Source: Yuukianura sp. NJ FZ-2021
Taxonomy: Eukaryota
Direction of reading: 5' to 3'
DNA: 64,000 nucleotides
Assembly: GCA_046563655.1 (NCBI GenBank)
Contig: CM102289.1
Coordinates: 8,928,001-8,992,000, forward strand
Positions 32,852-62,870 of the stretch are shown one piece after another. Every line of letters starts with the position of its first letter. Within the stretch, counting starts at the first letter, position 1. Both the position numbers and the translations under genes were made by a program. The notes below the pieces were generated by a model. It did no database searches. It was not told where the DNA came from and was given only the letters and a program-made list of their open reading frames with translations.

Positions 32852-34012
32852 GATTGACAATCCAAGTCTAAAACAATCAAATTATTAGTGAAGCTATGAT
32901 TGATGTAGTAACTGCTAGTACAAGAACATGAACGAAGTCGGTACCTAGATGACACTGTTTTATGTAAAGCTGTTGAGTTGACACTCTCATCGTTTAACGT
33001 TGAACGTTTCGTTTCATTTGTTTAACGTACAATTTGTTTAAAATGAAAGTAATAAAACTTAATTTTACCTTAACGTTGCAGTCGTTCCATTCCATAACGT
33101 TTGCATTGCGATGTACCGCTGTTACAACCAGTTGTCACCTTTAAATGTTGTTTAATCGTGTTATGAGAGACGTAAACTCTTCGTTTTTATACGAAACCGA
33201 TTGATTTGTAAAGATTTTATTGTTTTTGTTTTGGAAAATAAAATGACAATTCAAAAGGTCGCGCCACCAAGTTTGGTAGATTTGCACGCAAAGGTTCCGA
33301 ATGTGCAGTGGGAATTTGTCAGAATTGAGATCGGAGATTGTACGAAGCAAAGAGGTGAATAGGAAAAAGGCTCCTATGCTTGCCTCTGCCTGCATAGCTC
33401 TGCTTCGGCCAAAAAGTAAAGTCGTATGAAAATGTGGACAAACAGTGAGAACCTTTCTGATTCGCATAATATCCGGTCACCTCCCGAGCAAAAGCAGCAT
33501 TGCCTCTGTGAGGAGCAAAGTGATTTTCGAAATGCAAAAATCCAAAAACTTTAAAAATTCATAACTTCGGAACGGAATAACGTCAAGCGCTAATTTCTTC
33601 ACCTCCGAATTCAGAATGACATGAACTTTTTTAAAATTTAAAAAAAAATGCAAAAGCTAACATTAACTAAACCGTTTAATTTCGAAATGTGATTTCAACG
33701 CTTCAGAAGTCAAATTTTACATGTTTCTGACATAATTGGCTAAAAGACGTATTGAAAATTTTGAACAAACCGTAAATTGTTAATTGTTCAGTTAATTTAT
33801 CATTATTAATTGTGAGTTTCTTTAACTTTTTGTAATTAATTTAGGAGGAGGAGCCTAAATTTTGGTCCTTTTAAGGGATAGAGAGATCATGAAGAGAATA
33901 ATTTACCACAGATAGGGTGGAACATTTTTTGACTAAATTGTTCATCAATTTACAAAAGTAATACTCGTTGTTCTAAATATTTTTTCTAAAATTTAAAAAA
34001 AGTAAGCGCAGA

Positions 34013-37000
34013 TTAAGTAACGGAACTGTCGCTTTCTTCCGGAAGCAAAGGACTCTGAAGTGTCGCTGCGGCAGCATCCAGCCCGCGAATCAGCGATGCC
34101 ACTTCCAGCCCCAGTTCGTCACTGCTCCCACAAGTATCCTGCGGCTGATGTCGCCTACATTCCAGTAGTTGCCTTAACCGCGGGAAACTGTGACGAAGGG
34201 CTCCAGCACTCCAGTCCACGGTGCAATTCCAGTCGGTGGAGATCCAGGAACAGGAGCTGAAGCCCAGCACTTGATGTTTGTACATCTCGGATTTACGGGA
34301 CAGAAAAGCTCTCTCCAGTTCCATCAACTTGTCATTAATTATTCGATGGAACAGGAGCTTCCTAAAGAGCACACAAAAGACTAAAGGTTAGCCTCTGGAA
34401 ATGGAAATCAATTAAATCCGGAGCTTAATTACTACGAATTAATTTTACTTTGTGGTGGTGAGATGTCGAGATGAGGCTGGGATTGACGAAAGGTCACCGG
34501 AAAGGTCATGTTCTGGATCATGTTCAGGATTAACGACGCTTCGATTATGAATGTCTGTTCGAAAGTTGTCTCCAATTACTTCAAGTCGCATCACAGCCGC
34601 TTGTAAGTAGGCTAGTAACATAAAAAATTAAAAAAAAAACTTACATGATTAGATTATCAGGTTACATCATTTTAAAATTTGACGTATTAATATAAATAAC
34701 ATAATTCCAAATTTCAAAACGTTAAATAGTTAGTAGGAAAATCATTCTTTTTAAATTACATAATTCCAAATTCCAAAACGTTAAAAATTTAGTAGGAAAA
34801 TCACTCTTTTTAAATTACATAATTCCAAATTTCAAAACGTTAAAAATTTAGTGGGAAAATCACTCTTTTTAAATTACATAATTGCAAATTCCAAAACGTT
34901 AAAAATTTAGTGGGAGAATCACTCTTTTTAAATTACTTAATTCCAAATTCCAAAACGTTAAAAATTTAGTGGGAAAATCACTCTTTTTAAATTACTTAAT
35001 TCCAAATTCCAAAACGTTAAAAATTTAGCAGGAAAATCACTCTTTTTAAATTACATAATTCCAAATTTCAAAACGTTAAAAATTTAGTAGGAAAATCACT
35101 CTTTTTAAATTACATAATTCCAAATTTCAAAACGTTAAAAATTTAGTGGGAAAATCACTCTTTTTAAATTACATAATTGCAAATTCCAAAACGTTAAAAA
35201 TTTAGTGGGAGAATCACTCTTTTTAAATTACTTAATTCCAAATTCCAAAACGTTAAAAATTTAGTGGGAAAATCACTCTTTTTAAATTACTTAATTCCAA
35301 ATTCCAAAACGTTAAAAATTTAGCAGGAAAATCACTCTTTTTAAATTACATAATTCCAAATTTCAAAACGTTAAAAATTTAGTAGGAAAATCACTCTTTT
35401 TAAATAACATAATTCCAAATTCCAAAACGTTAAAAATTTAGTAGGAAAATCACTCTTTTAAAATTACATAATTCCAAAACGTTAAAAATTTAGTAGGAAA
35501 ATCACTCTTTTCAAATAACATAATTCCAAATTTCAAAACGTTAAAAAGTTAATAGGAAAATCACCCTTTTTAAATTACATAATTCCCAATTTCAAAACGT
35601 TAATTTACATAATTTTAACATGTTGTTGTTATTAAAAATTTTGTTGTATCATAACTAATGAAATCTGTCTTTTGTATGTGCGTCTGTGCGTGGGTTTTTT
35701 AATAGCGTATTTTCTGAAAAGCAGGGGAAAATTTTGATTATTTTTGTTTGTTACACAAAATTCATTTTCCAAAATTTTATGGAAATTGAAACCATTCAGT
35801 GCACGCCATGTCCATTAATAATTCAATATTAATGTCAAACTGTTTTCACTTTTTCATAAATCACTCTTTCTTAAGCTCCGGAAAGTAAACGTAAACATTA
35901 AAGAAACGCACCATTACTACTGAAGTTCCAATAATTCATCATGTAAATTTAGATGCTCCCGGCAAATGAGTTTGCTTTCACTTTTGAAATTATTCCGCCA
36001 GAAATTTATCTTTTCCGTCCCTCCCATGAACTAAATTTCTCCCAGTTTTGTACCTTCCCCAGAGCACTTAATTAATTCTGCTCAGATTTTTATTTACTTC
36101 TTCCTTAAGTAGAAAGCTCAACTTTCTGTAAAAACTAAAAACTAAAAAGTAAAAACATGTTGAAAAGGAAAAGCACGGGAATGGAAGTGTAGCTTGTTTT
36201 TGAAAAGAGCGCTACTTTTTCTCTCAAGTTTCACTCTTCCTGACTAAGAACTTTTGCTTTCTTTGCTTTCTCCTGTTGAAATATGAAGGTAAAGTGAAAA
36301 TGAGCGTGAAAGATGGAAAACAGGAGAACATAAATGTCAGAAGTTGGGATTGGATCAAGTGGATTTTCCTTTCTCGGGTTTCCAACATTCTTCAAAGTGC
36401 TTTTGACTTCCGACTATTCCATAAGAAAAAGCCTTTTGCTATTATAATTTGGCCATTATTGTTTTAGTACCATTTGGTTTTAGGCAGTTTGTTAGGTTAT
36501 GACTTACCAATTGATAAATTGGCTCTGTGGAAGTCTTCTTGGTAGTGAGCCATAAATGACCCGAAGGATCGTTGAATCTCTTCTACATAATCTTCTACAT
36601 TCATTGGAAGCAGAGAGGAGTCGACTAAAAGTAGGATCAAACCGGAAATAATCCGACCTGAAAGAAAAATCGAAAAAATTTCCAAAATGATTGTTCGTTC
36701 ACCATAAAATTTTGTTTTGAATTTGAAAACTTTTCAATAACTTGTCGTTCCATATTCTCAGAAATTTTTTCTCAGGAGAGTGAAAGTTATTGCACATATT
36801 TTTTTTACTATTGTCGTCAAGTGTACTAACAACCAGGAAGAATAGTACCGTAAATCCTGGCTCATAGTGTGCATATCTTAATCCGGCTCACGGAAAACTT
36901 TTTTTTGAAAAAGTAAAGTAAAAACGAAAAAGTAGGAGTTATTAGAAAGTTGGCGGGTAAAAAGAAGGATGCATGTGCTGCCATTAGGACAAAGTTGGGT

Positions 37001-40000
37001 CTATAATGACGCTGGAGATAAGATTTATGGGGCTGGAAGAGATGATGAATTGAGAACCAAAAGATGCTTCCATAGCTCATCGTCTGCACCAAACTTGACT
37101 GCGTGTTACCACGCAACCACTATACTTGACTGACTCAGCGCCAGCAGCAGCATCAAGCACATTTCCAGCAGCATCAAGCATATTTCCAGCACGCCACGCT
37201 TTTTGACACACCTCAAAGGCTGACGCTGAAGTCGAAATTTTCTTTTTGAGCAAAGTTAAGCACACACACCTTTCAAAGTTAAGAACTGATGATGATGAGT
37301 CAGAAGGAAAAAGTTGTGTGGGCTTCCCTCATCATCTTCAAAAAGCAAATCAGAAAGCGAGGAAATGAGAAGAGCGCGCTTTTTTGAAAAAAGAGAAACA
37401 GAACGTTGGTTTGCTCCTTAGAGAGACGCTGGTGTTATTGACAAGGTGAAAGTTTTAAGACTTTTCTCTTCTTAATGGAGAGAGATGAGAGACATAGTTA
37501 GTTTGACTTACCCAAAGTTTCTGCTCCCGTAAAACTTGGATCGACCAGGTTAGAAAAGTTATCAAAAGTATCAAAGGCAGTGTTGAACAATGGGTAGTCC
37601 CAGCCCTGTCATTAGATCCAAAAAGTTCAAAAATATAACAAAACCAATCATAACTTTTCATCATCATCTTCAGATACATCTTGAGGGACCCTTAAGTACA
37701 CTCCTCACACCATCAGACCTTAATTAAGGACTCTTTTCATTTTCCAGAAAAACTTTAGTTTCAGAAATCTCACAAAAAGTCAGCACGCCAGTTGTATTTT
37801 TTCAAAAATATTTCGGCTCAAAATATTACCGTATTTCACGGCGTATATCCCGCATAAGTTTGCAGCCTACCATACATGTCAAATAGCCTATTTTCTCCCA
37901 GACGCTGTGAATTAGGGTACTCCAAAAATATTTCCGCTCTAAATATTACCGTATTTCACGGCGTATATCCCACATCACGTTAAACCCTACCATGCATGTC
38001 AAATTTCAGTATTGTATTCATATCGCGAACCGGTAACACGCGAGATATACGCCGTGAAATACGGTACTTTAAAAATGTTTTTTGCAGAAATTGGGATATT
38101 TACTATAAAAAAAAAGTAATAAAATGTGACTTTTTTATCTTTAAAATTATAACATCGCGCTGAATTTTTTTCGTCTGCTACCATTGCATAGGTTGGCCCT
38201 ATGAATCTTTGTGCTTTTCTCCCATGAATCTCTGTCTTGCCTAAGTTAAGGACTTTCTCACCTGCCAAAGTAAGTTACGTTTATAGAATCCTCGCTCACC
38301 TTTGGGGCGTTAGTTACGCTGAAGCGAATAAATGGGATGCCCAGATTCCCAAAGAAAGCAAAAGCAGCTTCATCTCCAGACAGCGTCGATGAGAACAGAA
38401 TCCCAGGGCTGGTTCCAGAATTTATTTTCTGTTCAGGAGACACAACCAGCGCATCCAGCTCCTTAACACGCTGAATCGCTTTTCTCGCCACTTCTCTCAG
38501 CAGAGGAGAAGACACGACGTGGAGTGTTTGGTTCCCTTGGAGAAGACGACTCAAGTCGATGTAAGCAACAGCTCTGCTCCAAATTTCAAAATGATGTTCC
38601 TAAAATTTAAAATGAATTTCAAAATTCAGGAGTAGGAAAGGAAGCGGAATCTAAAATGCCATCTGAAAAAGCATTTCCAGGTTCAGAATTTGAAATTCCG
38701 TAATTCAGAAGGCATATTCAGAGAACCATGAGAGATGGTTTTTGCATTTCCGTTTTAAGTTAGGTTGGTTTGGATTAGGTTAGTGTGGAATCAGCACCTG
38801 GAGCCAGTGGAACACTCCAGCGGATGCATACAAATGAGCGTCCCAGGAAATGAACAGGATGGAACGCCGCGGTTTCCATCCGGACTGGACCGTCGTTTCG
38901 AAACTTCTGGCCAGTTCTGTGGTCACGGCTATGCCGATTCCAGGATCTCCAGCGCCGTAAGTCCAAGAGTCATGGGCACATCCAACAATAATGTATCTGA
39001 AAACATAACATGAAATGATAAAATAACATAAAATGATAACATAACATAAGGAAAAAAATTAAGATCAAAAAGTTATTTTTAGAACACGGTGAAAAAACAG
39101 AGCCTAACTAAACTCTTTTTTTGTAGAGAAAGTTGAGAAAGATAAAAGAGTGAAAGTTTAAGCGTAAATGATGACCAAAGCCACTTAATCCCTTGTTCGT
39201 CGTCCCAATCGCTTAACCTGTATTACTTTCCACCGGTTCACAAATGATCTTACCAAAGAAAAAAAACTTTCTCTTACTACTTTTCTCTTGTTCAACTTTC
39301 GAACAAAATTTGTCTTTTAGAGAAAAAGTTCAGTTTGAGCGTTTTTTTTTCAAGTTAAGTCTCAAAAACTTTTTGTGGAGACTGAAATTAGTCTTGTGGG
39401 AATTAGTTCAATAATTTCCACGTTCTTAATTTTAATCGTTCCTTTTAATCTTACTTTTACGACATCTCAAAACGAATAAGAAAAAAACGACGCGTGGAAG
39501 AAATTTACAATGATCGGGCTTATCCTAGCTGAAACTGACACAAATTTCTACTTTCTCGGATTTTTTTTTTTGCAAATCTCTTTTTTTCCGAATTTTTGCT
39601 TGAAATCTTTTTTTTTTTGCATGTTTTTGTTAGGTTGGGCACTTGAATATTACTATTGTTGTAGATGTGTGTATGCTTCTAAGGGCCATCACGGTTCAGT
39701 TCCTTTTGTTCTTTTCCGTCATCATAGCCTTCCATAAAACCAAGACGAACAACCACGCACGGAAGGAACTCCAGAATGGCTCAGAAAAAAGTAAAAAAGA
39801 AATGGATGGGCTCTCAATCCGCTGAACGGTGGTGGCAGTGTTTTGTACTCCAATGTTTTTGAGCGTCTCAATACCTAACATGAAGTCTAACTTGGAAAGT
39901 ATTTCAGTGCCTAAGTTGAAAGAAGTATTTTCAGTGAAAGCGCGGGAAGGAGGAAGTGAAGTGAGAGAAAGCACATAGGAAACAGGAAATGTGATGGAAC

Positions 40001-43000
40001 CAAGGCTCCCCTACACTTTCTACCGGCAGTCCATTCAAAAAATAAAACACAAGCAAAACACACAGTCGAAGCAGGTCAATTCGTAAGCTCAATTTCGTAA
40101 GCAGTCAATTCGTAAGCAGTCAATTCGTAAGCACCCAAATTCGTAAGCAGCCCAATTCGTAAGCACCCCAATTCGTAAGCATAGTCAATTCGTAAGCATC
40201 CTAATTCGTAAACTCGGAAAATTCGTAAGCAAGGTCAGTTCGTAAGCACCCGAATTCGTAAGCATCCAATTCGTAAGCATGGTCAACTCGTAAACATAGT
40301 CAATTCGTAAGCATTGCGAATTGTTGGCGGTTAGCTTTTTTTTTGTTCTTTTTGCATTGTCTAAACAATGGATACAATCCGTTGAAAATGTGAGTCAGTT
40401 ACAATAGCAAAATTCGGCCCTACATAACAAAAGAAATACGAAAATAGATTCTTAGGAAATGGCTGCTTACGAATTTGGTGCGCTGACGAATTTGCTGCTT
40501 ATGAATTGTTTTTGCTTAGGAATTTGGTTGCTTACGAATTGGAATGCTTACGAATTGACTATGCTTACGAATTGACTATGCTTACGAATTTGGGTGCTTA
40601 CGAATTGGAATGCTTACGAATTGACTGCTTACGAATTGGGATGTTTACGAATTGACTGCTTACGAAATTTAGCTTATGAATTGACCTGGAACCACACACA
40701 GTTTGCATTTTCTTTTGTTTTTAGTACGCTCGACTTAAGACGTACTTTTGCCTCTACTCTTTGTTTTTTAGTTTCAGTTTTTCAAATCCGTAAAAGAAAA
40801 AAATTTGGTGAAACTGCGAACCTTGAAGAAAGTATTTCCTAGAAAATTTTTTTTAAACAAATGCGGTTCTCTGGAATGGCTTGATGTCTTGAGTTTTAGT
40901 GTTTGAGAATAGGCACATCAAACTTCAAACCCCAATGTTAACGAACAACAAAACCGCCGACGACAAAATTTGTAAAAATCAAATCTACCTAAATATTGCA
41001 CGGACCATAGGTTCTTCTTCCAATATGATGGAGCATTTAGTTTTTCGAGAAATTGGAAAATTCCGAATGTAAAACAATCAAATAGTTAAGAACTTAAATA
41101 AATTTCTCACCAAACTTTGGAAGCACAAAGTCCTACTACTTTGCAGAATATTTTTGAATTTTTTTTCAGTTTCGGTAAATTTGTTTCGACGAATTGTACA
41201 TTTCAGAGTTCTGAAACTGACTTGATTATGTCTCAATTTGAACACAACAAAAGACTTTAGAGGAAAATCGTAAACAAGTGAGTCTTTGTGCGTTTCTTAG
41301 TAAAAACTTAAATTTGGCGCTATTGCTCTCACCTGTCAGACTCCCATGCTCCGGGAATTGCCGCCACCACGTTGTAAATTGTACTCATTTTCCCTTCATT
41401 AAAAATATGTAGGCCAACTTCCAAATTGCCGCCCATCGGATACACGTCTCTCAACAGTCCTCCCTTCCACGAACTTCTGCTTGACCTCTGCTCTGTAGCC
41501 CTCAGTAACCTAGACAATCAAAAGCAATTGTTAGCCTAACATTTTAGACAAAACAAGGAATTGTTAACCTAACATTTTGGACAAAAGAAGAAATTGTTAG
41601 CCGATTTCTTAGCACAAAGGCCATAAACGGACCACTTTGAGCAAATGACAATTGGAAATCAATTTTATACCTCAGAAGATTCCGAGCATCGTTGGAACTT
41701 ATTGTGTGTGCAGGAAGAAGACCTTTCTCTCGACGCTTCTGAAAGTGTTGTATATAAAGAGAAAGAATCAATTGATTAGTCCTTTTCTGTAGTCCTTTTT
41801 AGTCGCTCTCTCATAGACTTTGCTATAGGCTTTTCCTAGTTCATGAATTTCTAAACTAGGTTCTTCCGCTGTCATCCGTTCTTTCCTTGATAGTACGCCA
41901 ATGATTGGACTCAAGTGAAAAAGAAAGTTTGAGATCAGGCTGAAGGAAAGTCTATGGTAGAAAATAGGCTTTTTAGAATCTGTTTCTGAAGTCTATGATT
42001 CCTGTATCTACTCGAGGGACGTTCCAGAAGGCTGTCTGACATGGCAATAGCCTTTTGGCATAGTCTAGTGCCATGGGTAGGTTAGGTTTTGGCACAAGAC
42101 GACTTTGTCCATGGAGAAAGTGCAGAGAAAGTGGCTATATCCAGCCTATTTGTAATAATAATATTGTAAAACACAGGGGAATAGAAAGAAGAATTTCTTT
42201 TAAAGATAAAAGACAGCACTAAAGGCGCCTTTCTCTCAGCACTTTCGCCATCATTCTCTCCTGTCACCAAAATAGAGCAAACATCTCCAAAAAAAAATAC
42301 AAAGTCATACATGCGTTGTAAAGAAAAAATATTTGCACAAATTGAAGGTTTTTATAAAAACCAAAAAAATGGTGCCAGAAAATGTAGGTCAATCACCATC
42401 TACTTAAGCTGCCGCAGCACAGCATGTGGGGCAACAAAAAAAAACTTGTAAAACTTGGGGCTAAAATTTTAAGTTCTGTGACAAATTTTTTGATTGCTAA
42501 AATTTTAAGTTCTGTGACAAATTTTTTTATTGCTAAAATTATTACGGTTTTTTATGTTGCCAGAAACTGAATTGCGGCAATAAGCAGTATGCTCGTCAAA
42601 GATGTGATAAGAAATTTTTGTGTGAAATTTTTTCTTTTTGGAAACTTTTTTTTTGTTAATCTTGTTTTCCGCTTGGTAAAATTAAATTTCTTGTGCATTT
42701 GTTTGTATACTTAAACCAAAGGTTTCTTGATCCATTATTTTGCTGGCTCGCAACATTTCTCAGTTTTGAAAAGTAAGTTTTTGGTACGCTTTTTAAACTG
42801 AAATGTTTTTATTTTATTTTTTAAATTTGAAAAAGTACTTACAAAATGGTCATGGAATTGTGCCAAACCCAACAACGAGTCTCGTCGTACAGCACTTCCA
42901 GGTAGATTTGGTCCAAAATCTGCCGGATCCGGATAAAATACGAGCCCAGCAACTCCGAAAGAAGCGGCAGTCAATACCTTTAAAAGTCAAGCCAAATTTT

Positions 43001-46000
43001 GAACAAAGTTTTCAAAAAAAGTGAAAGTTTGGCTCAAGAGAAACTACTTGAGGCTTTATTGTTGACAGTTTGTGTTATAACCGAAAGGCAGGGAGAAAAT
43101 GTTAGTATTCCAAAGTGACATAATAAAATATTCAAAATTCATATGGATCCTACTTTCACCGGGGGATGTTGAGGCTTTTTCTCAAAAGAGAAAGTTTTTT
43201 TTTCCGCCGTCATGCGTCTATTTTGTATTATGAAAATAGTGTCTTCATATTCCATTACCGTAAGTCTGGATGAACTGTCGGAGGAGGAGGAGGAGGTGGA
43301 GGAGGAGGGAGAGAACTATCCGGAGGGAAGCCAAGAGTGAAAATGCAATTTAGAAGTGAAGCTTATGACAGCCCATTGATATAGTACCGCAGGAGGCGAT
43401 TATGGTTTCAAAAAATAACCTTTCTCTGTTATTAAAATTTGAAAGAAAAAAAGTTCACAGCGTCTGCGTATCCTTTGTTGTATCAACAAACTCCGCTCGA
43501 TCCAAAAACATGAGTGAAAATTTGAAATTTGGAGGCCAAAAAAGGCGAATCCACTTTCCTACGCTTTGAATGTGTCCCGAAATGCATTTCGGCTTATGCT
43601 AATGCAATGACAGGCTATTAACGATCCGTGCAAAGGACACGAGCACTTCCTCGCACTTTCTCCTCCACTTTCACTTATGTTGACCACTTCCACTTTCAAA
43701 AACTGCCGCGTGTCCACTACTACCATCACTCGAGACACAAAATTGAGCGAAAATCCAATTTCAAAACAAATGGAAATAAAAGCTTTTGCCATAAAAAATT
43801 TCTCGTAAATTGAAGTCCGTTTCTGATTTCAAAATTTTGCGAAAAAAAAATCAAATCATAATTTTTTTAGTACGTCTCCTCTCATATAGTTTTTAAGTAA
43901 AAGGCCAAAAAGTAGCTGGATGAAGATCACAATTTTTTTTAAAACAAAAAGTTTGAAATTTTTAAGTGCGTTTGGAGCTGTGCAATTCAGGGGGAGATAT
44001 GTGAGCATGTGATTGTACAGTAAACGTTCCAATTGTGCAAAATTTTTCTAGGTTAGTCTAGTTTTTTCAAGTTAGGCTAGTTTTTTTTTTTCAAGTTAGC
44101 CTACTTTTTTTTTAAGTTTGATAATTTACGTACCACTTGAGAGAGGTGTGTTGACCCAAATCTGAGGAGGGCCACTGCTCCACGTACAGAAATGCCTTGG
44201 TGCTGGAGCGCCTGGAAGTCCTGGACAGTTCCATAGTGGCCATAAATAAGGGTCCCTGTAGAGTCATCAACAGAGACAAGGAGACAATTCATTCTTTTCA
44301 ACATGTCTCCCACTCAACAGCACGATAAGGCAGTCCTTAAGACATACCAAATCTAAGTTAGGCTAACGTTAGGTTAGTAGCCTAACATAGATTCAGAAAG
44401 AACGTCAACGTCAGGGACATTGGGCAGATAAGACACGGACCAGCAGGAGTCGAAAGCCTTTTGAGCCTATTGACTCCTGCTTTCCCGCGCTTTTTCGCTC
44501 CAAAAGCACTTTCTCTCATTTGAATTTTTAAATTTTCCCGGCTCATCATTAGGACTCATCCAGAGGCCATCCCATTACCATCCAAATGCAAATCTCTCCG
44601 CTTAAAACTTTCTCTCTCCCCTCTTTCCATAAATGGAAAGTTTGTTTAGAGCTTTTCATTTCTAAAAAATCTCCTTCCATTTTTCAATTTTCTAAAAACG
44701 AAAAAGTTTTGTTTAAAAACGCGCTTCCAAGCACAGCACTTTTCATTGTCTTAAGAAGCTTTTGTGGTTGTTAGCCTACGTTACCATTAAGATTCGCGGG
44801 AGGTGAGAACGCAATTAATGGACGGGTGCTGGGCTGATCTGCGTCGTCGCCGAGAAGTGATGTTCTCCAACTGACTGATCCGTTTCTGTCATACACTTCC
44901 AGAAAATTTGACGTTTCAGACCTACAAAATTAAAAAAAAAAATTAAAAAAAGATATTTTTTGACCTTTTGACAAATTTAGCCACCTCTTCAAAAATCGTA
45001 ACACCCAAAACCTAAAAAATTAAAGGTCTTATACAGATTTGATTATGCTGGAATCCAGAGAAATTTCAGTTTGCTGTCTTTTATTTTCAAAAAGTTTTTT
45101 CTTTATTTTCAAAATTCGTTTTTTAACACGCGTATATCTGTATCACAGCCTTTAAAAAAATCCGAAATAATGACTACAGGAAATGATGAGAAATTGAATT
45201 CTGAAAGAAATAAAAAAAAAGTTAGGACTTAATCAATTCAATCCTCATTGACTTGCCAATTCGTTTTTATTGCCTTTGATCATGAATCCAATTCCACCAA
45301 AAAACGAGGAAAAAAACGAATTGTTCTCAAAGTAATTTCAAATTCATCAGATTCTTAAGAATACGACAAAGTCTTCCAGGAAATTGGATCCTCAGAATTA
45401 AAATCCCTGTTCTATATAAAACTTCTTCTAAACTTAGCTCTTCACAACTTTTCTCGACAGTTTATTTGATTTTCTCATTTTTTTAATCTTAAGCAACAGG
45501 ATCATTGTCAATGAAATCTAATTCGTTAAATCTGTATAAAAAAAAAAGGTTTCATGAATCACTTTTCTGTATTTTAAAAAAAAACGTGAAGTGTCGATTT
45601 AGGGGTTCACAAATTTTCGACTCTTTTCAAAAAGAAGAAAAGAGAAAGCTGTTGAAACAAAAGAAAAGTGAATTTCTCTGTTCCATTCAGCAATGGATAG
45701 ACAAAAAAAATTAGGTCGCTTCCACTCTACTGTTCAGAATACATTTGCATTGACTCAATAAAAGTTACAAAAAAATGAGACAAAAATTTTTAGAAAAGAG
45801 TATTTTTTTAAAGTTGTCGACTCTCGAGGAATAGTGAAAGTAGGAGACTTTTTTTCAAAAATGAAGGAAAGAGAGCACATAGGCCTCTCATGTTGAGTGT
45901 GCCACTCAAAAAGGATTGTGGAGTTCCTGAATTGATACATCAGCGGAAACGAGTTAAGTTCTGGAGGGGGTCCTTCCAGGAAAAAAAACTGGAAGTCCTC

Positions 46001-49000
46001 GCGTAGTCGACTCCTTGAACGTGACTAGGAAATGTAAAAAATATTCTAGACTTTCGATAAAAAAACGGCAGAAGTGGATGGGGAATTGAAGAGATTTCTC
46101 TAAAGACTTCCTAATTGACATGAACTCATTAGACAAGAGGAGAAAGTGAGTTCCTTGCTTTCTCTTTTTAGTACAACTCTCAGGGTAGTAACCTAAAATG
46201 CTATTTTAAGAACCTCTTTGAGTCACTTAATTTCATTTTGAACGATTTTTTTCTTACTCTAAATTTTCAAAAAATGCTACTTTACGACCAATTTCTAGTG
46301 ATTCAGAACATAAAATTCGGGAAAAGACTAAAAAGAAAAACTGGAATAATTTAGTAGATTCATTGGACCATAAACTGTGCAAAAATCGAAGTCATTTGAA
46401 CATTTTAAGTTGCAACTTTTACAAACTTCAGAGCACGGGTTTCAGTACGAGTTGATAAAATTTTGAAAATTTCAAAATTTTGGTTAAATTAGGCAAAAGT
46501 TGCTACTAATGTAGTAATCAGCATCCTACACCAGGTTTGACCTTGACCTTTTTCTGTAACTTTCGCTACTTGTCTACTTTGTTTCGCAAAATTACGCAAA
46601 TAATTGCTACCATAGTGTACATTCAGTTTTAATTTTATGTTATGTTTTTACATGACTACGATGCCATAGTTACTTTCACTTTTTTTTACTTTCTCCTTAC
46701 TAAAATGTTGCTTGGCATGAAGTTTAAGAAAAATGGAAATAAAATAAATAGAAAAGTGAATTTGATAAAAAGAAAGTATTGTTAAATTATTGGCTCACTT
46801 GGTAATAAGGGCCTTGTGCTGCTCGAAGCGAACGGACAAGCCGTAGCTCCTCCATAAGTCACGAATTGCCATTGCCATGGATTTCCCTTCAAGCGTTCCC
46901 GCCATATGAGCCTCCTGACTCATCCGTCTACAAAAGACAAAAGTTCACAATTCAATTTGTTACACAAAGCAACCGAGACGTGCCATTTCATGCACAAGGA
47001 ATGAAACCAGGACACGGAAAAATGGAAATCTTACATAAAATGTCGTTAGTCTTTGGAGAACATGTTACCTAACTTACATAAAAACATAACCTAACATCTT
47101 ATTCAAACGCGTTGAACCAAAATTTGAACTTTTTGAAACAAGGGCCCAAAATTTATCAAGCCTGACCTCAACTTTTTGAAACTTTGAGCCTTTTGCAGAA
47201 GGTTAACTAAAAAGATTTGTGTAAAGTTTAAAAAAAAGTTTGTGAAATGTTTACTGGCTTTGATGTTGGTCTAATTTAACTTTGTACTCACACTTCATTA
47301 AAACACAAACCTTACAATTTGTATTTCCATTTTCGTTTTTTCTAAATTTTTATTTTTTGTTTGGGATCAAATTCCGTAAAAAAAAGTTGTAAGAGGTTGC
47401 GAACAGCCTCTTAAAAATTGCATAAAAATTTAAAACCACTTTTGCTTTCACTCTCCTCCTGTTCAGAATAAAGTCAAATGATGCTAAGGGTTAATCCTCC
47501 GAACTTTTTCAAAAAATTTCAAAATGCTTTTGATTTTTTTTTGATCAACCTGATCTGTGATTAGTTGAAGAGAGTTGTTTTGTATTACCGTATTGATCCA
47601 TAATCTGCTTTCTCCCGCGTATCTATGGAAGGAAGAGATCAAGGACCTCTGCATTCACCAAAAATAAAACTCTCTATACAAAAAGTCCTTCCAGAGTTCA
47701 ATATTTACTTTCCTTGCTTTCACCTTACAAAACATAAAGGAGCGGAAATTGGGTCCGTCGCTTCAAAAGACTTTCTCCTCACAAACCTAGAGCCAGGAGC
47801 GCCAAAAACAGCTTTTTTCTATTTCTTTTTGGCGGGCATTATGGTTCTCCGCTCTGTTGGCGGGCTTTTTCAAAATAAGGCGGAGCAGCTTAACGCTTCA
47901 TTGTTTCTTGTCAAGGAATTGGAGCGGCTGGAACAGATTGTGACGTAAATCATCATTGTTTAGGGGAACCCTAATTCTTGAGACGGAAGCAACGCAATTC
48001 CGCCAACCATTGTTCTGCTTAACCTTGGTCAGGCTTTGGCCTAACTTTGACAAGAGTTAGGCTTGGTTTGGGATTTAGCCTGACTTTTACTATAGAAAGT
48101 GAAGGAATTCGATGGTTGTTACCTGAGATTGTGTCTAATATTTTGAGCTGTGACTTGTGATAGTAGTTTGGCTAGAAGTGAATTGTTGTTCGGTGGGGAG
48201 AGGATCATCTGGGGAGTGGCAACGGTGAGGCTACTGTGGCCATCGGAGTGTAGAATGTCGCCAGATTGATGGCGACTGGATGTCGCTTCTTTGCTTTTGG
48301 ACAATGTGAGAATTGTGCCCAGTAGGAATCCAAGTAAAAATAGACCCAGAATGACAAATAGTGTATGGACCTGCGATTACCACAAACATAGTGAAATATA
48401 ACAGAACGGTTCCATGCCATTGTTTCGAATGAATTGTTTCTAACGGAAAAGTTTCTAAAGATTGATTTTGTGGAGCAATCAAGCAAAATGTGCTTTTCAC
48501 TTTGAAAAAAAAAAGTTTTGGAATTGAAGTTTCTGTGAATGGTTTTTTTCGATTTGTTTTTTTCGTCGATGGAAATTGAAAAAAATTTAAGCTCCTTTTG
48601 AAATTGAAACTGCTGAAGTAAATTGATCCAAATAATTTTCAATTTGTATTTGACCCTGCTCTTTCAGTTTCTTATCTTTGGATTTAAAAAAAGCGGCATT
48701 CAATTTGTCCAAGTTCAAAATTCTAATTTCTTGTTCTAAATTCTAATTCGGATGGTTTCAATGTTTAGATCCAGGATCAAAGAAAATAAATCTCCAGGGA
48801 AAAGGAAATCCTAAAGAGAAGACGACGCTAACCCAAAAACCTAATCGGATCTAATCTCCCTAAAATCTCTATAAAACCAAAGGAGAGAATACAAGTTAGG
48901 CTAAAGTTAGGTTGTTAGGCTAACAAAACCTAAACTTAGGCTCTTTCACTATGCAGATCCCCAAGATACAAAAGCAACTTCCAAGACTTTCTACAGAATT

Positions 49001-49345
49001 AGATCATTTGAGGTTTTCAAGGCTCCCTTAGCTCATCCGTCTCACCTCGCCCCACCCCTGCCTTCTTTCACTTACTTTTTCCCGCCAAGACTTTCGTGGT
49101 TGAATTTGGTGAAGGAAGGAATGGTGGTGGTGGGACAGACCTTGAAACAACGTTACGTTCCCACCACTACTGGCCCCACCACCGGCCCCACCGGACATAC
49201 TCGGTTGTACAAAAGTCGTCATGCTACTGGTAGAGATGATCATCTCCTCATTGTCATCTTCATTTACTTCATCTTCTGCTCCCATCTCAGTTTCCTCATC
49301 TTCATAGTCCCAACGATGATAGTCATTTACACCCTTCCGCTTCAT
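34013..49345 (-). CDS. Type II membrane peptidase M28B-family protein (PSMA/NAALADase/transferrin-receptor-like), predicted catalytically inactive (~846 aa), 14 exons
   Basis: Exons 49345-49076, 48370-48123 (TM LFVILGLFLLGFLLGTILTL), 46927-46799, 44921-44785, 44255-44134, 42977-42843, 41738-41671, 41509-41333, 38996-38798, 38599-38300, 37605-37512, 36657-36508, 34611-34449, 34361-34013; all phases consistent. Motifs HMAGT, IYGHYG..DF, YPDPAD, IYNVVAAIPG..ESDRYIIVG, GWKPRRSILFISWD, NDKLMELERAF. Confidence 0.9.
34694..35610. repeat. 59-bp minisatellite, ~15.5 copies, intronic
   Basis: Unit AAATTACATAATTCCAAATT(T/C)CAAAACGTTAAAAATTTAGTAGGAAAATCACTCTTTTT. Confidence 0.95.
37949..38064. mobile_element. 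CCGTA-type MITE; left part also duplicated ~120 bp upstream (37828)
   Basis: TA-CCGTATTTCACGGCGTATATC...GATATACGCCGTGAAATACGG-TA (21-bp perfect TIR). Confidence 0.8.
40067..40693. mobile_element. Foldback/Mutator-like non-autonomous element with modular repeat arms and 9-bp TSD
   Basis: The left arm is an array of AATTCGTAAGCA units and the right arm an array of TGCTTACGAATT. Termini ..CAGGTCAATTC / GAATTGACCTG.. ACACACAGT flanks both sides (40058-40066, 40694-40702). Confidence 0.85.
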
Positions 49346-52943: not shown

Positions 52944-55732
52944 ATGTATCTGTTTCGAGTATTGTCACTTTGGGGTTTCATTTTTAACTCACTTCATTCA
53001 CTTGCTGACGGAAGATTGAGAATCACGGAGGTAAGAAAAATCATCAAAATCAAGTTTTTCATCTTTTAAAATTTCACATTTTTAGAAATAAAAATATTAA
53101 AATTAGTTTTAAAGTACAACTTTACCACAGGATAAATTGTACCTTGTTGGTAACGACAGTCAAATGGAAATTTTCAACGAACAGCGACTGAGCAATGAAC
53201 AACGTCTGAGGTTCGGAATGAACGAAACAGAGTGCACATTACGTGAACTCACATTAGTGTACGTCCAAATTTATCGCAGTGCGCTTTTGAAGTATTTTGG
53301 AAATTGTCAGAAGCTAACTAGCATAAAGTTCAGGAATGTTCGTTGGCATTGGGATTTGAGTAAAAAAGAGTTGCGACAGTTGATATATCTTCCAAATTTG
53401 GAAACGTATTGGTATAGACTCGACGCCAATTCCGCTCGATGGAATGGAGCAGACGATGTGGAATCGGTGGTTTTCTTCTACGTAGATTCTGGACATATGA
53501 ATTCTGGTTGGAATTCACTTCCATCAGTTAAGGACCTCTGGATTAAAGGGTACATTGAATCGGATCGATATTTGGACCTGACAGAAACTGAAATAATTGC
53601 AAAGAACATCCGAGACCAAAGAACTTGGAAATTGCTTTATGGTATGCTACCAAATGCGAAGACAGTAGAAATAGAAGAGTGCTTGCTCAACGTACAGTTT
53701 CTGGAGTTCAGGTCAGCAACATATTTGAAGTTGAAAAATAACGATCTCATTGACGGAAATATGGCACAAATTCTGAATCGATCGTCAATATTAATGGAAA
53801 AACTTTGGATCTATGCCGCGGAAGATGAAGCTGTCGATATAGCTCTTCTCCCCGAAAAACTTGTTTATCTTCATACCAGCCGCCTCAGTTTCCGTTGGAG
53901 CTCTGTGATACCACCAGTTCGAAACCTCCCTCACATGAAAAGATTAGTAGTCAAATATGGTGACCTTGACCCTAACCTTCTAAACACCACGATGGTACAG
54001 GTTCTGGGCATAGAAAACACCCTTCTATGGAACACCACTGTCGCTAGCATTGTAGCAAATATGACCAACTTAGACAGCCTGAGTATAGGATGTCAACATT
54101 TTGACGGAGTGTGCCCTTCCGTGGCACTCGATACCATTTCCCATCTTCCGCTAGATTGGGTCCTCTTACAAGATGTATACGTTTCAATGGGACAGAAACA
54201 AAAACCATTACCAAATATTACATATTTAGGTTTGTTCAGATGTGAGTTGGATCCTGTATTGTTAGAAAAGTTTGATGTTTCATTTCCAAAATTAAGCCTC
54301 ATTGGCATAGAAATTGGAGATGCTTTGTCAGGATCATTACTACAAACCCTAATTGCAATACCGCATTTGGAAATAATAGAAATTATTGTTCCAATTGATA
54401 CGGTTCCGGAAAAAATTCAAGCGCTTACACACCGTATACAACAAGAATTGAATGTGTCGTTGCCCCAGTTTACAATGACTGGGTTCATTGTTGGACTCAT
54501 GCGAACAAACTCTTCTGCTGGATTTGCCCACAACTATACATTGCAGCTGGGCAGTGACAATCTAGCTAACGTACAGTACAAAGACAGCCGGATTGCGACT
54601 CTCTTGAAGCACTACGGATACTCTCTGAAAGATTTCAAACCAGAGACTATAGTCCTGGTCTGCACGTTCCATAGATACTATATCTATGCTCTATGCTGCA
54701 CTGGAATTGCTTGTAACCTCTTGAGCATTCTAGTACTACTGCGCAAAGTCATGCGAAGTTCTACCAGCATACTACTACAGGCGCTTGGTTTCGCAGACTC
54801 GTTATATCTCCTCACGTCGTTTTCTACCGTACAAGAGTTCCAAAATTTGTTTCAGTTTAAACTACAGCGATCTCATTTGCACGGTTACCTTGCTTATCCA
54901 TTGAACAAAACAAGTAAGAAAAACTCTTTATAATAATAGTGGTTAAATTATTAAAATTTTTAAAAATTATTTAATGTAAAATCTTTAGTGTACACGGCCT
55001 CAGTGTACATGACGATTCTCATCACAGTGGAGAGGTTTGTAGCCATCTCAAAACCTCTTCAAGTGTCACTCATCTTCACAATAAAAAAGACAACTAGACG
55101 CGCAGTCGTAGTGTTTGGATGGGCGGCAATTTTAAACATCACAAGATGGTTTGAATTCATCAAATGGAACTACGAAGCTTCTTCGCCCTATTGGAGTTCA
55201 AACTACCCAAAACAGCTACACAGATTCCCATTGTACAGACTTCTCTACCAGAAGCTTGTATGGTACACCTTCACCTACGTAATACCATTTGTCGCCATTG
55301 CAACCATCAACATAATGATTCTTTTCAAGGTATTCCAATCCCTAGCTTCTCATTGGCTGTTGAAACACAGTTTCTGGTTGGCTATCCAAACCTAACTGAT
55401 TGTGCTTAACTTAGGTCAAAAAGGCGGCTGAATCCAGACGAGCTGTAGCTGCAGGACAGCAGGATGCTGATGAGAAGTCTTTGACCAGAACGCTGTTGAC
55501 AGTAGTGTTTGTGTTCTTCGTGTGTAACTGCGTGAGTGCCATCATCAACTGGATCTTTGTTTCTAAGGGGGTGGAGCCAGAGGTGGCAGAAATATTTGCC
55601 TGTTTGCCAATCATTTTGAACTCTTCAGTCAACTTTCTCCTCTACTTCTTCATGGGCACAAAATTCAGAAAAGAATTCAAATGCATGATTGCAGAAATCA
55701 AAACCCGTGTTAGAAATTTGTGTCACCGCTGA
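52944..55732 (+). CDS. Class A GPCR with FMRFamide-receptor-like 7TM and a large N-terminal LRR-like ectodomain (~842 aa), 4 exons
   Basis: Exons 52944-53030 (signal peptide MYLFRVLSLWGFIFNSLHSLA), 53131-54913, 54989-55329, 55415-55732; phases consistent. 7TM motifs GIACNLLSILVL, LQALGFADSLYL, TASVYMTILITVERFVAISKPL, NITRWFE, YVIPF..IN, LNSSVNFLLYFFMGTKFRKEF. Confidence 0.88.
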
Positions 55733-61587: not shown

Positions 61588-62026
61588 TTAGCATGCTTTG
61601 TATGATCTGGTGACATCGTTGAAATCTACGTCATTGAGGTTCCAAATGCCAATGTCATTAGGTTCCAGCCGAATTGCTCTGCCTCTACAATAGATTTTGC
61701 TGTAAAGTATCACACAAGTATCGCTGCTCAAGTCAACTGAAGAAGCATGGTCATTCCAATTTTCTGGCAAATTTTGACAATTTGGTCTCACTGTGACACG
61801 AAGTCCAAGTCCCTCTTGGTTTTCGTGTTCGAACAACACAATGTCAGTGGACTCGGATGACACTAATTCCACTCCTGTCCAATAACATGACATTTCAAAA
61901 TTTCAAATAACATACAATTTTGAAAACGAATAAAAAAAATTTTCAATTGTTAAAGTTGTGTGCTAACGTCTTACCAAAAACGATGGAGATGACAATAGTT
62001 ACACAAAGATTTCTCCAGTTTGACAT
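61588..62026 (-). CDS. Small secreted beta/gamma-crystallin-like protein, copy 1 (~112 aa), 2 exons
   Basis: Exons 62026-61975 (hydrophobic MSNWRNLCVTIVISIVF) and 61874-61588. Two Greek-key-like motifs: LFEHENQEG...WNDHASSV and LYSKIYCRG...FNDVTRSY. Confidence 0.8.
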
Positions 62027-62416: not shown

Positions 62417-62870
62417 TTATGCTGGAGACGGACATGCACGAAATGATCTGGCGACGTTGTTAAAGTGTACGTCGTTTAGATTTGACACTCCAAGGTCATT
62501 TGGTGAGAGTCTAAGAGTTTGACCTCTGCAAAAAACTTCGGAGGACAGGAGAATGCAGTCATCATTGTTGAGGTCAACTGAGGTCACGCGATTGCGCCAT
62601 TTCACGGGCAAGTTTCTGCAGTGTTCGTCCAAAAGAATTGGAAACCGAAGACCAGCGTATCCCTCGTTATCAAACAACATGATGATTTTCGAAGTTGTTC
62701 GACATGAAACGTGACCTGGGTCAAAGATAAAACCATATTTGTATAAATTTAGTCATTTCTAATGAATTATATATAATTATATATAAATTTAATCAATTCA
62801 ATTAATTTATGTTACCTGTTTCAATTAAGATCAACGTCATTGCAACTACAATAGTCCATGCAGTCGCCAT
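62417..62870 (-). CDS. Small secreted beta/gamma-crystallin-like protein, copy 2 (~117 aa), 2 exons
   Basis: Exons 62870-62816 (MATAWTIVVAMTLILIET) and 62715-62417. Paralogous to copy 1: CRNLP..WRNRVTSVDL..CILL..CRG..L.PNDLG..NLNDV.FN.V.RSF.AC. Same phase-1 intron after the signal peptide. Confidence 0.8.

Follow-up and report, generated by a model that had tools for sequence, protein, structure and literature searches.

The window analysed here is a stretch of 64,000 nt from contig CM102289.1 of the springtail Yuukianura sp. NJ FZ-2021 (assembly GCA_046563655.1, forward-strand positions 8,928,001 to 8,992,000). It contains a gene for a degenerate member of the M28B family, which comprises peptidases such as GCPII as well as the non-enzymatic transferrin receptors (TfR). 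The gene occupies positions 49345-34013 of the window on the minus strand, to which all exon and residue coordinates below refer. Its 14 exons were modelled from the sequence together with homologs; all 13 introns have GT-AG borders, and the coding sequence of 2541 nt stays open up to a single terminal stop codon, yielding a protein of 846 aa. As judged from the sequence, the 14-exon model is intact and real, in agreement with the intact frame asserted in the preliminary description of this DNA. The 3' boundary of exon 9 is identical in six other short springtail-type exon records.

Hydropathy predicts a type II single-pass membrane protein with a cytoplasmic tail of 92 aa, a single hydrophobic segment (aa ~93-113) and a large ectodomain, and seven N-glycosylation sequons are present. 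Exon 1 (49076..49345) provides the start codon and the cytoplasmic tail (aa 1-90), which is identical to the N-terminus of the Folsomia candida protein P0005 at 28 of 77 positions, and exon 2 (48123..48370) provides the transmembrane helix (48364-48302) and the stalk. The first part of the protease-like domain is encoded by exon 3 (46799..46927), followed by the apical (PA) region, which begins in exon 4 (44785..44921) and continues through exons 5 (44134..44255) and 6 (42843..42977). After exon 7 (41671..41738), the protein returns in exon 8 (41333..41509) to the protease-like domain, which ends in exon 12 (36508..36657), where the helical domain starts. The latter continues in exon 13 (34449..34611), and exon 14 (34013..34361) contains the remaining helical (dimerization) part and the stop codon. 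When 14 stretches of the gene were scanned against Pfam, two matched domains of the family, namely exon 9 (Peptidase_M28, 27.2 bits, cut-off 21.3) and exon 14 (TFR_dimer, E 4.5e-05, 23.9 bits, below the cut-off of 27.1); the others gave no match or weak, unrelated ones. A PA domain exceeds the Pfam cut-off in Folsomia P0005 only and not in the window protein. The order of PA, M28 and TfR-dimer parts is nonetheless that of the M28B family, and GCPIII, GCPII and TfR1 are matched in the PDB. The protein is predicted to form a homodimer.

In GCPII, zinc is bound by His377, Asp387, Glu425, Asp453 and His553, while Glu424 is the catalytic residue (PMC10794815, excerpt). Positions were numbered after full-length human GCPII (9hlw_A, query residues 21-86 matching chain residues 370-435 with E 1.3e-15) and by a constant offset of 33 to the lemur FOLH1 protein P0014. 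Exon 9 (38798..38996) encodes Ala436 at the His377 position (38977-38975), Asp446 as the retained Asp387 (38947-38945), His483 at the Glu424 position (38836-38834) and Leu484 at the Glu425 position (38833-38831). Ser512 replaces Asp453 (38551-38549) in exon 10 (38300..38599), and in exon 11 (37512..37605) Phe602 and Asn603 are found in place of Tyr552 and His553 (37587-37582). The five motifs that had been aligned by eye between positions 37512 and 38996 are therefore present on the minus strand where they had been reported, and every substitution read from them, as well as the retention of Asp387, is confirmed by the alignment to GCPII. The substrate is contacted in GCPII by Arg210, Tyr552, Lys699 and Tyr700 (PMC10794815, excerpt); here, Arg210, located in exon 5, is changed to leucine, Tyr552 to phenylalanine, and the poorly aligned stretch around 699-700 contains neither Lys699 nor Tyr700. 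The GDPxTP loop, which follows the sequence of exon 6 in other family members, is absent from all three full-length springtail proteins, while a GDP match is found in 16 of the 17 other rows. An extra exon between exons 6 and 7 was ruled out, as the Folsomia and Allacma proteins exhibit the same gap. The positions of Glu433 and Glu436, also in exon 9, are occupied by histidine and glutamine; these positions and the GDPxTP loop are presumably the carriers of calcium ligands.

The preliminary description counted four of five zinc ligands and the catalytic glutamate as lost. This holds for the window gene but cannot be extended to springtails in general, since Folsomia P0004 keeps His553 and the state common to springtails is consequently a loss of three of the five ligands and of Glu424. 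It had also been asked whether the new histidines substitute for the missing ligands, and neither of them looks like a replacement. His437, directly after Ala436, was rejected as a shifted ligand because His378 is ancestral: relatives with a complete site have it next to an intact His377. His483 was rejected because nine of ten springtail-type records have asparagine at position 424. Peptidase activity would thus be absent, and the window protein is very probably a non-enzyme.

The closest named proteins are P0003 of Allacma fusca and P0004 and P0005 of the laboratory animal Folsomia candida, with 65, 55 and 45% identity over aligned columns, respectively; the other 28 aligned proteins reach 21-30%. 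The pattern of losses recurs in 13 springtail-type records. In all ten records that cover exon 9, position 377 is Ala or Ser, 387 is Asp, 424 is His or Asn and 425 is Leu; in all seven that cover exon 10, position 453 is Ser or Thr. Position 553 is seen in two springtail proteins (Asn in the window gene, His in P0004). Folsomia P0005 lacks the stretch that matches exons 11-12, including the His553 motif, which is either a real deletion or a gap in the annotation. Among four springtail proteins, 103 of 238 columns are invariant, indicating that the gene is kept under selection. The idea of a maintained non-enzyme is thereby upheld by the open frame, the identity of 55-65% to P0004 and P0003 and the losses shared across springtails. 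That the locus instead represents a decaying gene or an artefact of prediction is very improbable in view of 13 canonical introns, 846 open codons and so many records with the same pattern.

Searches of the genome, whose counts are lower bounds, revealed no second M28B gene. An active M28B paralog was likewise sought and none was found: the searches yielded 1, 1, 17 and 6 matches, and the other matches, upon reading, are what we take to be other M28 types. Three of the M28 loci (L003, L004 and L005) have the catalytic domain within one open frame of ~300 aa and carry a full motif set; they presumably resemble microbial leucyl aminopeptidases, with a possible horizontal origin.

The descent of the gene was studied in two trees of the ectodomain only, one including 50 of 71 aligned rows (LG+C20, a quick tree without bootstrap) and one including 29 rows (21 left out; LG+G4). 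In both, the springtail proteins are located inside an arthropod group of a clade termed clade B (support of 99 in the Shimodaira-Hasegawa-like approximate likelihood ratio test, SH-aLRT), and this arthropod group is nested in a protostome group (SH-aLRT 97-98). The 29-row tree extends clade B to amphioxus, hemichordates and echinoderms, making it bilaterian (support 95), a point that the 50-row tree leaves open. Grouping of the springtails with clade A, the GCPII side, was rejected by the approximately unbiased (AU) test (p-AU 0.0008, 29-row tree, with the group named after the tree had been seen). The closest kin outside springtails are arthropod clade-B proteins annotated as “NAALAD2-like” (Centruroides, Tachypleus, Chamberlinius, Ixodes, Strigamia, and the copepods Caligus and one other), which share with springtails the histidine at 378 and a motif in the cytoplasmic tail. 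All six residues of the site are found in 13 of 32 clade-B rows, including scorpion, horseshoe crab, millipede, the annelid Owenia and amphioxus, and in 30 of 37 clade-A and outgroup rows (Solemya and a TfR2 fragment not counted). Most chelicerate and myriapod members of clade B retain the complete set. Copepods have lost a different pair: they lack Asp387 and His553, precisely the two residues that are retained in Folsomia P0004, and keep His377, Glu424, Glu425 and Asp453. These complementary losses imply that the common ancestor possessed a full site and that the springtail loss is their own. By this comparison of residues, springtails lost the site themselves instead of inheriting the loss. 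Of the two origins considered in the preliminary description, convergent inactivation is favored, because the relatives among which the gene falls in the trees include arthropods with a complete site. A clade uniting springtails and copepods was rejected, its support being 57 in the 29-row tree.

Partial loss of the site is ordinary in the M28B family. All six residues are present in 113 of 183 homolog rows, a sample biased toward divergent proteins by the degenerate query and in which many of the other 70 rows are fragments, and full-length degraded proteins exist in molluscs, echinoderms, crustaceans and arachnids. Another degraded pattern, with Lys at 424 or 425 and Gly or Asn at 553, is shared by mollusc, hemichordate and other clade-B proteins (P0045, P0049, P0058, P0061, P0069 and P0094), which suggests further conserved half-dead lineages. 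No insect M28B member was found among the named matches listed (120 of 728 in the larger search).

What the protein does instead might be sought in the remodelled cavity itself, which could bind a small ligand or one metal ion by new residues and act as a sensor or carrier, possibly with altered catalysis. Around the old site, springtails share six invariant residues that are new, namely Asp510, Arg513, Asp571 and Glu572, which are encoded by exon 10, and His492 and His498. Furthermore, Asp387 is kept in ten of ten records, P0004 has its His553, and the windows of the core are among the most conserved. However, each zinc ion would be short of one or more protein ligands throughout the springtails, and in the window gene both would be short of two; together with the rejection of His437 and His483 as replacements, this makes a working cavity rather unlikely.

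A first pointer to a different role lies in the cytoplasmic tail. The sequence Tyr9-His-Arg-Trp-Asp (aa 9-13, 49307..49321) is a candidate tyrosine sorting signal and is followed by an acidic run (49309-49244). Within residues 1-60, the pattern Y-x-[RK]-[WF] occurs in 37 of 48 clade-B proteins of at least 600 aa and in none of 203 others. These counts are redundant, since nine of the records belong to one cluster and are almost identical and about a hundred are vertebrate proteins resembling one another, and the clade-B rows were partly assigned without a tree. Echinoderm members of clade B have phenylalanine at the last place. The pattern resembles Y20TRF23, an internalization motif of TfR1 (PMC12045970, excerpt). 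When a profile was built from nine invertebrate clade-B N-termini, with no vertebrate or springtail among them, human TfR1 headed the 26 chains listed (E 0.012), matching over residues 14-86; the motif falls in register with YTRF and contributes about 4 bits, and full-length GCPII is not among the matches listed. The case for homology is weakened by a control profile of nine clade-A N-termini, which places TfR1 third (E 0.35) via the transmembrane helix alone, and by a tail-only profile of ten other clade-B proteins, for which TfR1 is not among the matches listed. Homology of the tail motif to YTRF is thus suggestive only. By analogy, the motif would bind a clathrin adaptor. The tail of the window protein also contains four consecutive histidines (49121-49132), which are absent from Folsomia P0005.

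The tail motif bears on the possibility that the protein is a resident scaffold of the surface or of an organelle, for example a component of adhesion, cuticle or junctions, in which the motif would serve for targeting or be a leftover and no cargo would be taken up. The large ectodomain with its seven sequons would suit such a protein, and since intact clade-B enzymes also carry the motif, its presence does not have to indicate a receptor. In springtails, however, it was retained while most of the tail diverged (8 of 48 positions identical to the scorpion protein), which argues for a current use, and a scaffold without uptake is considered improbable.

The second pointer is a helix in the helical domain (aa 675-694), most of which is encoded by exon 13 (34611-34559). 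Of 102 windows, it shows the greatest excess of conservation in springtails, the value for three of their proteins being 0.80 and that for six other arthropod clade-B proteins 0.25. Pairwise identities within springtails are 0.95, 0.75 and 0.70 at an overall identity of 49-56%; the same helix does not exceed 0.55 in 45 myriapod and chelicerate pairs and reaches 0.30 in the copepod pair. The closest relatives outside springtails show no such conserved helix. It maps onto residues 638-657 of TfR1 via a stretch of frog NAALAD2 (residues 29-105, corresponding to TfR1 631-707 at equal length, with the alignment not displayed). When the helical stretch of P0004 was searched by itself against the PDB, no member of the family was matched. 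In TfR1, Asp648 is needed for transferrin binding, and in TfR2 an arginine three residues further on forms a salt bridge with transferrin (PMC8702017, excerpt). From its place in TfR1, the springtail helix is a putative binding surface.

Taken together, a receptor or scaffold role is plausible, with the tail motif and the conserved helix as the two pointers, and the reading preferred here is that of a non-catalytic M28B receptor or adaptor, to which a probability of roughly 0.55 is assigned. In this model, an old trafficking motif, dating back to the bilaterian clade B, would have been in place before catalysis was lost, which would have happened later and several times, most completely in springtails. 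The tail tyrosine motif would drive cycling through endosomes, and a conserved protein partner would be bound on the helical domain. The move from enzyme to receptor was likely made separately from that of the vertebrate TfR. Several points weigh against this reading. The helix was chosen post hoc, being the top-scoring of 102 windows, and the springtail side of the comparison consists of three sequences, two of which are paralogs of one species. The old pocket and its surroundings are conserved as strongly (0.73-0.83), so that binding in the pocket would fit equally well. The corresponding spot lies near the dimer contact in TfR2 (PMC8702017, excerpt), which would also suit the scaffold described above. 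The motif counts have the composition stated above, and the underlying 50-row tree is a quick one. In addition, tryptophan is unusual at the last place of YxxPhi signals and three mollusc proteins that were viewed carry valine for the tyrosine, so the motif may bind something else.

A stricter version would make the protein an analogue of TfR that takes up an iron carrier, either a transferrin-family protein or ferritin. It would account for the TfR-like fold and domain order, the dead site, the register of the tail motif with YTRF, the position of the conserved helix on the transferrin-binding helix of TfR1 and the presence of three transferrin-family loci in the genome (L038, L039 and L040; the search gives a lower bound). 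The chemistry of the helix is different, though: Asp648 and Arg651 of TfR1 correspond to Arg685 and Val688, Val683-Met684-Arg685 occupies the place of RGD, and no RGD exists in the three springtail proteins. The cysteines of the window protein are restricted to positions 435, 768, 777, 799 and 808, with none near the membrane, where TfR1 has Cys89 and Cys98. By eye, the proteins of all three transferrin-family loci have a hydrophobic C-terminus resembling an anchor, and the same lower-bound search of the genome revealed no transferrin that is plainly secreted. Neither eight weak Rfam matches nor a hairpin scan revealed an iron-responsive element (IRE) near the gene; as no IRE above the cut-off was found anywhere in the genome, the scan had no positive control. 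The clade-A control and the tail-only profile described above also count against it. An iron-carrier receptor in this strict sense is therefore unlikely, and the partner is probably not a vertebrate-style transferrin.

The descent of TfR itself also touches clade B. A TfR2 fragment (P0100, 244 columns) was placed on 96 branches, and the four best placements are in or at the base of clade B (log-likelihood difference, dlogL, up to 0.63), which would be in line with an iron-carrier role. The outgroup branch (dlogL 2.1) and the sea-spider branch (2.8) are not rejected. A sister position to vertebrate GCPII and NAALAD2 (dlogL 21.7) is rejected by the AU test but not by the Shimodaira-Hasegawa test (0.28), and the 50-row tree leaves the position unresolved. 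A FastTree analysis of the untrimmed record had placed TfR2 as sister to springtails (support 0.055); this was treated as long-branch attraction and is absent from the 50-row tree. In the placement test, the same position was not rejected (dlogL 12.2, p-AU 0.09). P0100 is a turtle record named GIGYF1, a fused annotation of which the first ~250 residues are TfR-like. Descent of TfR from clade B is thus a fair hypothesis and not a result. TfR orthologs are described as restricted to vertebrates and transferrin uptake in insects as unexplained (PMC11094094, PMC3708341, excerpts). It is a long shot that vertebrate TfR arose from clade B with a YxR[WF] tail and that the springtail copy independently turned into an iron-carrier receptor, using the same helix with new chemistry; if this were true, it would be the first TfR-like uptake protein in a hexapod, a group whose insects have no recognized one.

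Like TfR1 and TfR2, the protein has a non-enzymatic M28B ectodomain. Unlike them, it lacks the RGD, the Asp648 and the cysteines near the membrane as well as the GDPxTP loop, and no IRE was seen; the TfR2 fragment has lost other residues, keeping Glu424 and Asp453 and lacking Asp387. In sequence, it is closer to GCPII and GCPIII (PDB search, E 1e-50) than to TfR1 (E 2e-30). With the active peptidases GCPII/PSMA (FOLH1), GCPIII (NAALAD2) and NAALADL1, the former two being its best PDB matches, it shares the domain order, Asp387 and the core motifs of the site, whereas Glu424, four zinc ligands, Arg210 and Tyr552 are replaced and it belongs to clade B instead of the GCPII clade. A precedent for an adaptor is provided by yeast Tre1 and Tre2, which resemble TfR and sort a membrane transporter (PMC8050425, excerpt). 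They act via PPxY motifs and Rsp5, and both PPxY and LPxY are absent from the tails of the window protein and P0005. On its residues, the window protein is therefore not a member of the active GCPII type, of TfR (ligand residues, cysteines) or of the Tre1/2 type (PPxY). The preliminary description also mentioned NAALADL2, which we take to be a degenerate, inactive M28B paralog. No record of that name appears among the named homolog matches (150 matches of one search are unnamed, of which 20 were looked up), and a lead comes from the Atlas, where the first 200 aa of P0005 give a cluster named NADL2 in third place (0.88, below the line of 0.9). Whatever the kinship, intact relatives lie between the two, and inactivity was accordingly not inherited from a shared dead ancestor. 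NAALADL2 is described as a little-characterized enzyme with likely aminopeptidase activity (PMC9768917, excerpt).

Several further features were noticed in the window and at its neighboring genes. Intron 12 contains a 59-bp tandem repeat (34693-35603, 15.6 copies, 93% matches), intron 8 two arrays of ~16-bp units arranged as a facing inverted pair (40038-40722), resembling a foldback element or a miniature inverted-repeat transposable element, and intron 10 a short element with inverted arms of 23-27 bp (37827-38066). Candidate poly(A) signals at 33680, 33221 and 33156 bound the 3' untranslated region, and a frame for ribosomal protein L34 (32591-32881, minus strand) is located 1.1 kb downstream. 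The 5' end of the gene adjoins a G-protein-coupled receptor gene (52944-55732, plus strand) with a long N-terminal domain and a 7tm_1 match. Two similar open frames of ~105 aa (61591-61902 and 62420-62752, minus strand) are beta/gamma-crystallin-like by eye; one was scanned and gave no Pfam match.

In the literature, no description of springtail or arthropod M28B pseudo-enzymes and no functional study of arthropod clade-B proteins was found, although the account of family evolution by Lambert and Mitchell (2007) may cover invertebrate members, and TfR-like roles have been speculated for mollusc NAALAD2 (PMC12896564, excerpt). Dead M28B proteins such as TfR1/2 and yeast Tre1/2 are already known, and many invertebrate relatives have partly degraded sites, so the loss of the site alone is ordinary; as no insect member appears among the named matches listed, the gene may have no direct bearing on insects. 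The value of the finding rather lies in its setting, a bilaterian paralog group with a YTRF-like tail motif that includes intact enzymes as well as several separately degraded lineages. Within this group, the springtail copy is the furthest degraded and keeps one helix at the place where TfR1 binds its ligand. It may thereby offer a second, independent case for how the M28B fold turns from a peptidase into a receptor, and clade B would be a concrete candidate for the origin of TfR.

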